Made by a program: the position numbers and the translations under genes. DNA of 64,000 nucleotides from an uncultured Chloroflexia bacterium. GTDB lineage: Bacteria > Chloroflexota > Limnocylindria > Limnocylindrales > CSP1-4. Positions 17,031-27,257 of the stretch are shown here, one piece after another (the first letter of the stretch is position 1; each line of letters begins with the position of its first letter). Below the pieces are notes generated by a model that saw nothing but the letters and a program-made list of their open reading frames with translations, was not told the origin of the DNA and ran no database searches. The stretch spans positions 35,662 through 99,661 of the forward strand of contig CAWABV010000004.1 of assembly GCA_963780375.1 (NCBI GenBank). The letters are read 5' to 3'.

Positions 17031-17108
17031 GGTCGATGCTCCTCCACACACGGCCCGTCCGAGGACCTGTGAAACGGCATCTCGAGGGCGGGTCGGGAGT
17101 GCCCCGAT

Positions 17109-17160
17109 TCTACGCTCGCGGTCTACGCTCGGGGTCTGCGCTCGGGGTCTACGCTCGGGG
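17109..17160. repeat. 13-bp tandem repeat x4
   Basis: TCTACGCTCGCGG / TCTACGCTCGGGG / TCTGCGCTCGGGG / TCTACGCTCGGGG. Confidence 0.85.
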
Positions 17161-17220
17161 TCCAGTTTCGCGGTTCACGGCGCCGACCCGACGGCGCCGC
17201 CCCACAGAGCGCCACGCGCG

Positions 17221-17382
17221 CTTGGAACATCCCCATGTTCCAAGCGGCGTCTGAACGATCGTTCTTCCGCAAAGCGGAACAGGCAGGGTTCCGAATTGCC
17301 GCTGAAGTGCCTAGAACGGCTCCGAATCGCGACAAAAGCCGTTCCTCCGCCGCTGATTGGAACTTCGGGATGTTCCAGATGC
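17221..17382. repeat. Multi-palindromic GAAC...GTTC element, copy 1
   Basis: Five GAAC/GTTC-closed inverted repeats; colinear with 27124-27257. Confidence 0.75.
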
Positions 17383-17422
17383 GATGGAGTCGCCGATAAG
17401 GGCCGCTTCGCAGACTGAGCCG

Positions 17423-18074
17423 ATGCCCACCTGGCAATCCGCCGCGCATCGAGGCCGGCAGCGCGCGAGGTGCCTCCTGCGGCGCGCTGGCGAGGAGTTT
17501 CGTCGCTTGCGGATCGGATCCGGCATCAGCACCCGACAGCTCGCTGCGACCCTCGGTATCTCACACACGCAAGTCCGGCGCATCGAGGCGGGAGTCGCCC
17601 CGCACGTGGACCTGGATCTCATTAGTCGTATGGCATCGGTCCTGGGCGCGGAGCTCAGCCTGGGAGTCCATCCGATCGGGCCTCCGGTCCGCGACAAGGC
17701 GCATGTCGAACTGCTCGAGCGGTTCGCCGCACGGCTGGGTCCAGGCATGACATGGGCAGACGGAGGTCCCGATCCCGATCCCAGGAGACCTTCGGAGTGC
17801 CGATGGCGTAACCGGGAACGGCGAATTCGACGCTGTCGTCGAGGCCGAGACTCGCCTTCACGATGTCCAAGCCACCGAGCGTCGCCTGCGAGCCAAGCAA
17901 CGCGACCTCGAGACGACCCGCGCGATCCTGCTCGTGGCCGACACGCGGCACAACCGTGCGGTCATCGCTGCCGTGCCCGACCTGCAGCGGCAGTTCCCCG
18001 TCGGGACTCGCGCGTGCCTCGCCGCCCTCGGCAAGGGTCGGGATCCCGGCGCCGACTGCCTCGTCATCCTCTAA
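17423..18074 (+). CDS. XRE-family HTH protein with a C-terminal PD-(D/E)xK/Vsr-like putative nuclease domain, frameshifted near 17755
   Basis: RRLRIGSGISTRQLAATLGISHTQVRRIEAG (HTH); after removing one G: QTEVPIPIPGDLRSADG...VVEAETRLHDVQATERRLRAKQRD...LLVADTRHNR; TAA at 18072-18074. Confidence 0.7.
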
Positions 18075-18085
18075 CGTGAGGTGCG

Positions 18086-18774
18086 ATGACAGCGACCAGC
18101 ATCCGCGACCTCCCACAGCCCGAAGCGGTGATCTTCGACCTCGATGGCACGCTGGTCGACACGGTCGAGACGCGCATCGAAGCCTGGAAGCAGACGTTCG
18201 ACGAGATCGGGGTCCGACGACACGCGAGGAGCTCGAGCCGCTCATCGGTGTCGATGGCAAGCGGCTCGCGCGCGAGGTGTGCGCGCTCGCCGGCCAGCCG
18301 ATCGACGAGGCGCGCGCCGAGGTCATCGACAAGCGCTGCGGTGAGATCTACGAGGAGCTCAACAGCGACCCTCGGGCGCTGCCTGGAGTCCGTCGATTGT
18401 TCGACACGATCGACAGTCGCGGGCTCAAGAGCGCGATCGCGACGTCCAGCCGGAAAGAACAGGTGAAGACGTCGGTCGATGCGCTCGGACTCACGAAGGA
18501 GCCGACCATCGTCGATGCGAGCCACGTCGAGCACGCAAAACCGGAGCCCGATCTCTTGCTCCGCGCCGCGGAAGAGCTCGGGGTGGACCCATCAAGGGCG
18601 TGGTACATCGGCGATTCGACCTGGGACATGGGCGCGTCGGTGGCGGCCGCGATGATCCCGATCGGCGTCACCGCCGGTGCCGCGGTCTCGCGCCAGGCGC
18701 TCGAAGGCGCCGGCGCGGCGGTCGTGGTCGAGACGCTCGACGAGATCACGGACGCCCTGGCAGTGAGACGCTGA
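18086..18774 (+). CDS. HAD-superfamily hydrolase, frameshifted near 18215
   Basis: IFDLDGTLVDT (motif I); in the second frame IATSS, KPEPD, YIGDSTWD. Confidence 0.88.
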
Positions 18775-18777
18775 TCG

Positions 18778-18847
18778 TACCGCGGTGACGCGCTACCGCG
18801 GTGACGCGCTACCGCGGTGACGTGCTAACGCGCTAACGGTAACGCGC
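18778..18847. repeat. 16-bp tandem repeat x3 plus partial copies
   Basis: TACCGCGGTGACGCGC x2, TACCGCGGTGACGTGC, then TAACGCGC fragments; between convergent genes. Confidence 0.85.
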
Positions 18848-18855
18848 TCCCTGGT

Positions 18856-19771: not shown

Positions 19772-21118
19772 GTGGACCCGGCCGCCCAGACCTTCGTCCA
19801 ACTCGTCGCCCTTGTCCTGCTCGGGTTGCTGGTCGTGCGCATCCTGACGTCGCTCCCCGGCTGGCTGCGACGAGACCGCCGACCCGAGGCCCGGTCGATC
19901 ATGGTCGTCGGCGTCGGCGGTGGCGGCGGCAACGCCGTCGACCGGATGGTCGACGTCGGGCTCCCGACTGTCGGCTTCGTCGCCGTCAATACCGATGCCC
20001 AGGCCCTTCGTGAGTCACGCGCCGAACAACGCGTCCGCATCGGCGACCGTGTCACCCGCGGGCTCGGCTCAGGCGGAGATCCGGAGATCGGCCGCCGCGC
20101 CGCCGAGGAGGACGCCGAACGCATCGGCGCTGCCGTCGCGGGGGCGGATCTCGTGTTCGTGACTGCCGGACTCGGGGGCGGGACGGGCTCCGGCGCCGCG
20201 CCCATCGTCGCTGCCAAGGCCCGTGAGGGTGGCGCGCTGACGATCGCGGTCGTGACCAAGCCATTCGATTTCGAAGGGACGCCGCGACGCGACATCGCCG
20301 AGGACGCTGCTCAACGACTGCTCGCCGAGGTCGACGCGATGATCACGGTGCCCAATGACCGCATCGGCCAGGTCATCGACCCCGACGCATCCGCCCTCGA
20401 GGCGTTCCGGGTCGTCGATGAGGTGCTACTCAAAGGCGTCGAGGGTATCGTCGAGCTGCTCACGTCGCCGGGCCTCATCAACCTCGATTTCGCCGACGTC
20501 CGCTCGGTCGTCCAGGGTGCCGGTCCGGCGCTCATCGGTCTGGGCGAGGGCCACGGAGAAGGACGTGCGGTCGAGGCCGCGCGTCAGGCGGCGTCGAGTC
20601 CATTGCTCGAGGCCAGCATCAACGGCGCGCGCGGCGTGCTGCTTCACATATCCGGGCCGGCCGACCTGAGCCTGCGGGAAGTTCGGCAGGCCGCCGACGA
20701 GATCCGTGCCGCGGCCGATCCGCGCGCGAACGTCATCTTCGGTGCGAGCATCGGCGAGGTACCCGAGGGCGGGGTCCACATCACGTTGATCGCCACGGGG
20801 TTGGACGGCCACCGGCAGGCCGAGCCGCTGCCGCGGCCGACCCCGATCGCCCGCCCAGTGCCGCCCCCCGAGCCGGCCCTCGAGCCAGCCGGCGAGCCGG
20901 CCCTCGAGCCAGCCTCCGAGCCAGCCCCCAAGCCGGAAGCCACCGCTGCACCGACTCCTGCCGCGCCATCGACGACTCCGGCGCCCGACCTCCAACTCGG
21001 CCTCGACGAATCGCTCGACCTGCCGTCCTTCCTGCGCAACCCTCGCCCGACCTCGGGCACGGGACGTCGGCGCGACCCAAAGGATTCCCCGTCGCCGACC
21101 GGCTCGCGGTCGAGCTGA
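19772..21118 (+). CDS. ftsZ: Cell division protein FtsZ with an N-terminal hydrophobic (predicted TM) extension
   Basis: VVGVGGGGGNAV, NTDAQAL, GLGGGTGSGA tubulin signature, INLDFADV T7 loop, P/E/A linker, C-terminal LDLPSFLR peptide. Confidence 0.93.
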   Translation: MDPAAQTFVQLVALVLLGLLVVRILTSLPGWLRRDRRPEARSIMVVGVGGGGGNAVDRMVDVGLPTVGFVAVNTDAQALRESRAEQRVRIGDRVTRGLGSGGDPEIGRRAAEEDAERIGAAVAGADLVFVTAGLGGGTGSGAAPIVAAKAREGGALTIAVVTKPFDFEGTPRRDIAEDAAQRLLAEVDAMITVPNDRIGQVIDPDASALEAFRVVDEVLLKGVEGIVELLTSPGLINLDFADVRSVVQGAGPALIGLGEGHGEGRAVEAARQAASSPLLEASINGARGVLLHISGPADLSLREVRQAADEIRAAADPRANVIFGASIGEVPEGGVHITLIATGLDGHRQAEPLPRPTPIARPVPPPEPALEPAGEPALEPASEPAPKPEATAAPTPAAPSTTPAPDLQLGLDESLDLPSFLRNPRPTSGTGRRRDPKDSPSPTGSRSS

Positions 21119-27063: not shown

Positions 27064-27100
27064 CGAGTGGCCGCGGGCCTGTCCAACCCGCGGCCACTCG
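27064..27100 (+). terminator. Stem-loop downstream of the ScyD/E gene
   Basis: CGAGTGGCCGCGGG / CCCGCGGCCACTCG 14-bp inverted repeat followed by CTTCT. Confidence 0.6.
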
Positions 27101-27123: not shown

Positions 27124-27257
27124 TGGAACACTTGTTCCAACTGACGGCTAAACGTCTGTTCTTTCGCGGTTTGGAACATCACGGGTTCCAACGCGCGGCT
27201 GAAATGCCCCATCCGCTTCGTTCCGACGTTGGTCGTAACACGTGATGTTCCAGGTGC
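27124..27257. repeat. Multi-palindromic GAAC...GTTC element, copy 2
   Basis: Ungapped similarity to 17236-17311; shared end GATGTTCCAGRTGCG. Confidence 0.75.

Follow-up and report, generated by a model that had tools for sequence, protein, structure and literature searches.

A three-module palindromic repeat and an adjacent gene for a predicted helix-turn-helix nuclease as a probable REP/RAYT-like partnership in Limnocylindria

In the 64,000-nucleotide stretch of contig CAWABV010000004.1 analysed here (hereafter the window; assembly GCA_963780375.1, an uncultured soil bacterium of the Limnocylindrales), a 155-nt palindromic element lies directly upstream of a gene for a protein that joins an XRE-type helix-turn-helix (HTH) to a C-terminal domain modelled as a PD-(D/E)xK nuclease fold. 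From the comparison of related genomes we consider it rather probable that the two form a cognate partnership of protein and repeat, similar to that of repetitive extragenic palindromic (REP) sequences with the REP-associated tyrosine transposases (RAYTs) but guided by an HTH and equipped with a nuclease. The initial annotation of the window had proposed a REP/RAYT-like arrangement with a different enzyme, and comparative genomics supports that proposal. Three findings had been named there as fatal to it, namely a mere two copies, a lack of association with the protein family elsewhere and a C-terminal domain of another fold, and none of them was made. Below, G000 denotes the source genome of the window (3.56 Mb in 13 contigs, 91.5% complete), other G numbers denote related genomes, and L numbers denote loci. 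The features of the locus, together with a second copy of the element, are as follows.

17223-17377, + strand: element copy 1, of the three-module repeat type of about 157 nt (nhmmer and covariance model R1, 169 bits; aligned with 11 further full copies in alignment A2)
17223-17255, + strand: left module, hairpin or palindrome TGGAACAT-CCCC-ATGTTCCA followed by the tail AGCGGCGTCTGAAC, with the inverted repeat TGGAAC-N8-GTTCCA at 17223-17242; pairs with the right module as a terminal inverted repeat of about 27 nt
17253-17279, + strand: GAAC-N4-GTTC (inverted repeat at 17253-17264) and overlapping TTCCGC-N3-GCGGAA palindromes
17276-17306, + strand: middle module, inverted repeat GGAAC-N7-GTTCC (17276-17292) and tail GAATTGCCGCTGAAG, oriented like the left module
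17314-17344, + strand: internal hairpin, inverted repeat GAACGGCT...AGCCGTTC, variable and missing in short variants
17345-17377, + strand: right module, inverted, with the tail CGCCGCTGAT and then the inverted repeat TGGAAC-N8-GTTCCA (17358-17377)
17378-17422, + strand: leader between element and gene, with a GATAAGGG box at 17395-17402; G-TAAG-type boxes likewise stand 5′ of paralogues (by eye)
17423-18074, + strand: gene for the XRE-HTH protein with the predicted PD-(D/E)xK fold, about 216 aa, its frame broken by one extra G near 17755-17757
27124-27252, + strand: element copy 2, a short variant without the internal hairpin, its right hairpin being GTAAC...GTTCC (R1 model, 108 bits)
17109-17162, no strand assigned: 13-bp tandem array TCTACGCTCGGGG, 4.2 copies, a local expansion beyond the repeat unit

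Copy 1 is built of three palindromic modules, and the GTTC strings at 17237, 17261, 17288, 17341 and 17372 each close one inverted repeat, exactly where five such repeats had first been described. The homologous element that had been noticed 10 kb away is copy 2, with 76% column identity to copy 1. The window contains GGAAC-N2-20-GTTCC 8 times, where 1.14 would be expected; none of 100 shuffles attained 8, and 5 of the 8 matches fall inside the two copies. The 13-bp array that had been placed before the element is real, but it is locus-specific and separate from the repeat unit: the orthologous locus of G024 has about 1.4 units of it, and no other element copy in G000 has such an array beside it. 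A reading of GAAC-N4-GTTC as a LexA/SOS box was dropped, as the motif is one part of the 155-nt repeat. At 27065-27099, just 3′ of an NHL-repeat gene and about 25 nt before copy 2, there is a perfect hairpin with a 13-bp stem, GAGTGGCCGCGGG...CCCGCGGCCACTC, which looks like a terminator stem without a T-run.

Searches of G000 with BLAST, iterated nhmmer and R1, a covariance model built from the copies, recovered 12 full copies and about 4 that are partial or variant, more than the two seen at first. All of them are intergenic and stand in unrelated contexts, for example 5′ of infC, tig and pyrG and between convergent genes (translations read by eye), and the 16 element loci hold 33 of the genome's 92 GGAAC..GTTCC hairpins. 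According to the alignment of the 12 full copies (A2), the unit runs from TGGAAC to GTTCCA over about 155 nt in three modules: a left module with a TGGAACAT-N2-4-ATGTTCCA palindrome and the tail AGCGGCGGCTGAAC, a middle module with GGAAC-N7-GTTCC and the tail GAATGGCGGCTGAGG in the same orientation, and a right module, which repeats the left one in inverted form. The spacing within the palindromes is near-constant (N8/N7/N8), and the left end pairs with the right end through terminal inverted repeats of about 27 nt, making the entire unit foldable as a single long hairpin.

A second, more diverged subfamily with GTAAC..GTTAC/GTTCC hairpins was seen in G000 at C8:465342-465461, C5:467065-467147 and C5:301091-301223; it stands in tandem with a main-type copy at two sites, and it groups with similar copies of G024 and G021, not by genome. 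Enrichment of exact k-mers, a criterion applied to RAYT flanks, was uninformative: coding words rich in GC head the list of 14-mers, and within 17101-17423 no 14-mer exceeds 8 occurrences. The commonest 14-mer of G000, CCCGGTCGGCCCGG or its complement, with 24 occurrences over both strands, lies outside the present element and may mark another repeat.

In order to relate the gene to the element, 80 loci of the gene family were taken from species-representative genomes, of which 15, with at least 62% identity, were treated as close orthologues. An R1 match lies directly upstream of 14 of these 15, ending about 40 nt before the gene, and the contig of the 15th offers 181 nt of upstream sequence only. 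All 14 genomes with an R1-linked gene also carry dispersed copies, with 4-66 matches each (both strands counted). In smaller samples of 10 and then 17 family loci of related genomes, a strong R1 match was found solely at the G024 orthologue. The 15 close orthologues are syntenic with one another: ACT gene, element, HTH gene and HAD gene follow in this order, which is kept as far as the contigs reach (HAD gene in 15/15, ACT gene in 10/15), while diverged paralogues number 1-5 per genome. Thus the gene is single-copy, vertically inherited and housekeeping-like. Presence of the gene and presence of the repeats go together, with R1 matches in 14/14 orthologue genomes against 4/24 other genomes of the same genus and 4/150 genomes sampled across the family, G021 being the exception and the counts being uncorrected for shared descent; the search of the sister family gave no match in 16 genomes.

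Outside the syntenic group the association appears to be more than synteny, because other clades of the family show their own repeats at other loci. Of 78 family loci, 15 proved to have upstream and downstream flanks similar to each other at E<1e-3; for 8 the value was E<=4e-6, and the best was 2e-22. Random G000 genes, 299 in number, yielded 6 such cases, none of which fell below 4.6e-5. The flanking is on both sides at these 15/78 loci and mostly by direct copies. R1-type matches also adjoin family genes in two other genera with GGAAC-type elements (upstream at L085, downstream at L084). In G014, a 150-nt element with the same three-module architecture of inverted ends, but with GTGCA..TGCAC palindromes, stands on both sides of a paralogue and recurs at no fewer than 3 further loci, and TGGTCGA..TCGACCA, GGTGATC and TGAAC..GTTCA types were recognised by eye beside other paralogues. 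Gene-flanking types have extra copies in G202, G204 and G205. Paralogues of 40-46% identity (L078, L079, L074, L080 and L081) have downstream arrays of short motifs of the TTGCGT/ACGCAA/GATGCAA type and no three-module element (by eye); these arrays may be another type of cognate site.

The type of recognition helix appears to track the type of palindrome, S-H-T going with GGAAC and G-H-D with TGGTCGA. When 66 loci were sorted, recurrent perfect GGAAC hairpins were present at 9 of them, each of which has an S-H-T helix (L129, L138 and 7 loci of the syntenic clade), and recurrent TGGTC/GGTCG hairpins at 7, which are every locus with a G-H-D helix (7/7); no crossed pairing of helix and palindrome occurred among the 66. 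In G208, a genome with a G-H-D gene, 11 perfect TGGTCGA-N4-TCGACCA sites are dispersed over 9 contigs, whereas TGGTCGA with N4 spacing was absent from 5 control genomes whose G-H-D gene status was not checked. Palindromes are preserved inside flanks that are otherwise unalignable, and clades differ in palindrome while sharing the architecture, as would be expected if a DNA-binding protein and its site co-evolve.

The gene starts at a conserved codon 45 nt after the end of the element, which agrees with the XRE HTH gene initially placed shortly downstream, and its HTH scores above the gathering score of both HTH_31 (40.2 bits, cut-off 27) and HTH_3 (32.4 bits, cut-off 23). An intact orthologue in G024 has 217 aa and is 74% identical over the C-terminal part. 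Relatives number at least 789 in a large metagenome and protein collection and 175 in species-representative genomes, and those of the collection that have names are XRE-family regulators of Candidatus Limnocylindrales with no annotated domain besides the HTH. Most family genes have, 20-40 nt 5′ of their start codon, a box of the G-TAAG type (GATAAGGG, GGTAAGTG, GGTGAGC and the like; by eye), which may be a promoter -10 element or a common operator.

The C-terminal domain, in which a nuclease-like pattern of acidic residues had first been read, models as a PD-(D/E)xK fold. The AlphaFold model (30-row alignment; mean predicted local distance difference test score, pLDDT, 86) places the HTH at about residues 8-75, a low-confidence linker at 83-90 and an alpha-beta-beta-beta-alpha-beta domain at 93-172, with helices at 93-104 and 149-163 and strands at 111-117, 126-132, 137-143 and 167-172. 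By exhaustive structure comparison, all top matches outside the HTH were PD-(D/E)xK nucleases, namely the NucS C-domain (Z 9.6, root-mean-square deviation 2.8 over 93 aligned residues), the XisH-like protein 2okf (Z 8.9), AF1548 (1y88; Z 8.6), Can2 (Z 8.3) and Hjc (Z 7.6). These matches are mutually consistent and span the whole domain, and Foldseek agrees (2wiw, 1y88 and 2vld). A sequence search of solved structures returned HTH matches and no nuclease, no Pfam or NCBIfam family matched the C-terminal domain, and PADLOC gave weak HTH matches and no defence family. The nearest clusters in the ESM Atlas are unnamed Chloroflexota proteins, together with a 0.76 match to a cluster bearing Replic_Relax, which is merely a lead.

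Conservation was examined in 66 family members down to 42% identity. E115, D123, R125, D128, E141, A142, E143, T144, D148, Q150, K159, R161, D162, N178 and R179 are kept in 63-66 of the 66, and the putative catalytic residues D128, E141 and E143 in 64-65, with the recognition helix of the HTH variable. Catalysis is plausible from this residue conservation. A homodimer was modelled with a score of 0.72 against 0.34 for the best control, with run agreement of at least 77% of contacts, a pLDDT of at least 82 and the interface in the HTH domain; of the solved homodimers 20 out of 30 attain the mark applied, as does 1 out of 23 single chains, and resemblance to XRE dimers of known structure may account for the pass.

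The dimer model would also suit a protein that is merely a transcription factor on palindromic operators, with the nuclease-like domain as a sensor or oligomerisation module and the elements as operator-carrying repeats spread by other machinery, forming or perturbing a regulon. The nearest HTH structures are those of autoregulators on palindromic operators (restriction-modification controller proteins, ClgR and HipB), the element lies 45 nt before the start codon in 14/15 orthologues, and the palindromes, whose spacing hardly varies (it is N4 where the type is TGGTCGA), would fit a dimer bound to duplex DNA. This explanation seems unlikely to us, since the family preserves acidic residues where PD-(D/E)xK enzymes canonically have them while the HTH varies, as catalysis would need, and since a 155-nt three-module unit with terminal inverted repeats far exceeds the size of an operator. 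Furthermore, sites have been gained or lost between close species and lie equally often 3′ as 5′ of genes, and no transposase with matching ends was found in G000.

The gain and loss of sites can be followed among close relatives. Several copies are at orthologous sites common to G000, G024, G021 and G196, while others are filled in one genome and empty in another: L034 of G024 corresponds to a short element-free spacer at G000 C8:415816-415886, L024 of G024 to the element-free C4:61538-61620, and L183 of G196 to the element-free C8:226585-226588. All 12 full copies of G000 form one clade, and copies group by genome, not by orthologous site, with identities of 43-59% for orthologous-site pairs and usually 58-81% for the best same-genome partner. 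This clustering fits homogenisation or renewed spread within a lineage.

A number of observations weigh against the proposed partnership, and some of them are those expected if the element were an ordinary MITE (miniature inverted-repeat transposable element) or REP-like repeat unrelated to the gene, with its position due to inherited synteny and the repeats flanking paralogues due to chance or repeat-rich surroundings. The 15 close orthologues occupy one common locus, and because they are syntenic, their adjacency and co-occurrence amount to one inherited event, not 15; within this clade, moreover, the element is on one side of the gene only. Further copies, among them the ones 5′ of infC, tig and pyrG, are likewise kept at orthologous sites. 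G021 (a 91%-complete assembly) retains about 17 element loci without a close orthologue of the gene, having only paralogues of 38-39% identity, one of them broken, and the second family gene of G000 (C8:31685-32365), its sole paralogue, has no flanking repeat. The explanation does not accommodate the non-syntenic family clades with their own repeat types of the same architecture, the excess of similar flanks over control genes, the R1-type matches beside family genes at other loci in two other genera, or the lack of crossed helix and palindrome pairings. We regard an unrelated repeat as already disfavoured and quite improbable.

Other points against the partnership concern sampling, activity and the enzyme itself. 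The control for flank similarity was drawn from G000 only, the match of helix to palindrome within each clade is partly shared descent, and BLAST detected no extra copies of the gene-flanking type in G009 and G203. The flanks of the 12 copies show no visible target-site duplication, and the comparison of filled with empty sites leaves insertion boundaries and target-site duplications unreadable, as the intergenic DNA of G000 is too diverged from that of G024 and G196. With 12-33 loci per genome and a mean pairwise identity of 58% in G000, the copies are scarce and diverged, and therefore activity, if any, is low or ancient. As for the enzyme, the Z scores of 8-9.6 by which the fold was recognised are just moderately over the tool's stated background of 7-8, and the active-site motif D128...E141-A-E143 is D..E-x-E, with Glu replacing the Lys of D..E-x-K. 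The D..E-x-E variant is used by BamHI.

As a strongly folding sequence, the element could also be a structured non-coding RNA, either a small RNA or a 5′ leader, present in several copies, of which 9 of 12 are co-oriented with a neighbouring gene by our own count. Folding z scores are -4.4 on the + strand and -6.5 on the - strand, so that the two strands are comparable, and the model scores the element on both. RNAalifold gave a covariation term of +0.32 with double changes in 2 of 26 pairs, which is no covariation support; the stems are kept as sequence, without compensatory change. Covariation would in any case not tell models of a hairpin from models of a dimer site. Rfam had no match at gathering score in the whole window, and the 4 permissive matches, all far below their cut-offs, were set aside as chance. 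A sigma-70 consensus was sought in the leader (17378-17422) without a match, and the promoter and terminator scan was likewise empty. The element is, in addition, patchy within the genus, and its copies are found in all sorts of gene context. In view of the like folding of both strands, the conservation of the stems as sequence and the lack of an Rfam match, we read the element as a DNA repeat rather than an RNA gene, and consider a non-coding RNA very improbable.

One surplus G in ATGACATGGGCAG (17747-17759) interrupts the frame of the HTH gene, and from there the protein runs on in the +1 frame to 18074. Contigs from four runs were examined, none of which spans 17287-17450, and the RNA-library contigs over the gene are no proof of transcription. 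Two contigs from other public runs, X5 (DNA library) and X18 (RNA library), have one letter fewer at 17757 and differ at a few further positions, and thus represent near relatives with an intact frame; the run in which the stretch is best represented has no coverage there. The adjacent gene for a HAD-family hydrolase (18086-18774) is also broken, its N-terminal part lying in one frame and the rest in the frame of the open reading frame (ORF) 17863-18774, which suggests single-base indel errors of assembly. Because intact relatives exist and the HAD gene is broken too, the break in the HTH gene is less likely to be a property of the system than an error of assembly or a lesion at strain level. 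The neighbouring genes in G000 and G024 encode ACT-domain, HAD and MBL-fold proteins. The HAD gene and the MBL-fold gene convergent with it are separated by a spacer that holds a 16-bp tandem repeat, TACCGCGGTGACGCGC, of 3.4 copies (18778-18848). Farther downstream, at 19772-21118, an FtsZ-like ORF has a GGGGGNAVDRM motif (by eye), a long hydrophobic N-terminal extension and a C-terminus rich in repeats and proline, with tandem repeats of 12-36 bp at 20860-20936.

Under the proposed partnership, the repeats would be a non-autonomous population of palindromic units of about 155 nt each, and the adjacent gene would encode their recogniser, a dimeric XRE-HTH protein fused to a PD-(D/E)xK nuclease domain. 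HTH dimers may bind the palindromes of their own repeat type (TGGAACAT..ATGTTCCA in the present case), and the copy at the promoter side or leader of the gene could confer autoregulation and thereby self-limiting expression. The nuclease domain may cut at or near bound, possibly extruded, palindromes, and such cutting could lead to copying, conversion or maintenance and spread of the repeats, paralleling the supposed role of RAYTs for REPs and REPINs. Among these steps, all of them inferred, binding specificity is the best supported, through comparative evidence. Mobilisation of the repeats by the protein is proposed by analogy with RAYTs, and we hold propagation driven by the protein to be possible but doubtful. 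The initial annotation had suggested an autonomous unit with non-autonomous copies; dispersed non-autonomous copies do exist, but the unit of gene and element sits in a fixed locus and does not look mobile, since close orthologues share the one conserved ACT-element-HTH-HAD arrangement, and it resembles a domesticated single-copy RAYT, not an autonomous transposon.

In its fullest form the proposal is that Limnocylindria carry a second, independent symbiosis of a repeat with a dedicated enzyme, in which a domesticated XRE-HTH-PD-(D/E)xK nuclease would read an 18-20-bp palindrome by means of its recognition helix and cut in order to copy or maintain the three-module elements throughout the genome, with many specificity types of enzyme and repeat that co-diversify; we put this forward tentatively, with more doubt than confidence. 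To our knowledge, RAYTs are the sole enzyme class described as dedicated to extragenic palindromic repeats. If the proposal is true, a second partnership based on a different enzyme would indicate that such intragenomic associations arose more than once, an unannotated protein family would gain a testable role, and the pairs of recognition helix and palindrome would form a natural set in which to follow the evolution of DNA-binding specificity for a nuclease whose recognition site is long. In the literature searched, supplementary files not being covered, no paper connecting REP-like repeats with an HTH/PD-(D/E)xK protein or describing repeats of Limnocylindria came up.

Compared with known nucleases, the fold of residues 92-217 and the acidic residues on strands 2 and 3 are like those of NucS/EndoMS, Hjc, XisH-like proteins and Can2/Card1, from which the present protein differs by the lack of any match at sequence level, its N-terminal XRE HTH and its D..E-x-E motif. 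The HTH structure is like that of restriction-modification controller proteins (C.BclI, Z 10.0; C.AhdI, Z 9.9), which are dimers that bind palindromes 5′ of their own gene; unlike in those, the present HTH is fused to a predicted nuclease and the genome carries dozens of sites, and no restriction-modification methyltransferase adjoins the gene among the ACT, HAD and MBL-type neighbours in G000 and G024.

MITEs such as ERIC and Correia elements are 130-170 nt long, have terminal inverted repeats, occupy intergenic sites, fold as long hairpins and are patchily distributed. The present element is like them in all of these properties, and unlike them in having a dedicated gene that is not transposase-like and no visible target-site duplication; a parent insertion sequence with matching ends was looked for in the incomplete assembly of G000 by nhmmer and by scanning for hairpins, and neither detected separated or isolated end pairs.

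Whole super-families of repeats lack a known partner, for instance the CGTC REPs, which Di Nocera et al. 2013 (PMC3733652) describe as palindromic extragenic repeats of other phyla for which no dedicated transposase was found, with stems of 8-9 bp starting in A-T pairs, loops of 4-5 nt and a CCA tail. Some tails of the present repeats hold CGTC-like strings, such as CGTCGAACG in the G014 type, but their modules have stems of 5-8 bp and other sequences, and we do not class them with the CGTC REPs.

The closest comparison remains the one with REP/REPIN-RAYT systems, from which the present case departs in enzyme and in repeat. Instead of a Y1 HUH tyrosine transposase related to IS200/IS605, the protein is an XRE-HTH with a predicted PD-(D/E)xK fold, and PF01797 (RAYT) had no match in G000, the control search having matched 6 of 14 reference genomes. 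The unit is about 155 nt in three modules, unlike REPs of 20-40 nt with a GTAG tag; copies number tens, not hundreds, and are 55-80% identical, so that exact k-mers are not enriched; and in this clade, in place of two inverted repeats flanking the gene, there is one element, upstream only, whose own outer modules are inverted. As far as the parts of Nunvar et al. 2010 (PMC2817692) and Bertels et al. 2017 (PMC5581495) drawn on here describe them, RAYT genes are single-copy and vertically inherited, are flanked by REPs, co-evolve with them and correlate with REP abundance. The likeness to the present system, within that description, is that a single-copy, vertically inherited gene stands beside putatively cognate palindromic repeats, that the same repeats are dispersed between genes, that the type of repeat shifts with the clade of the enzyme, that presence of the gene accompanies the repeats, and that copies of the same genome are more alike than orthologous ones.

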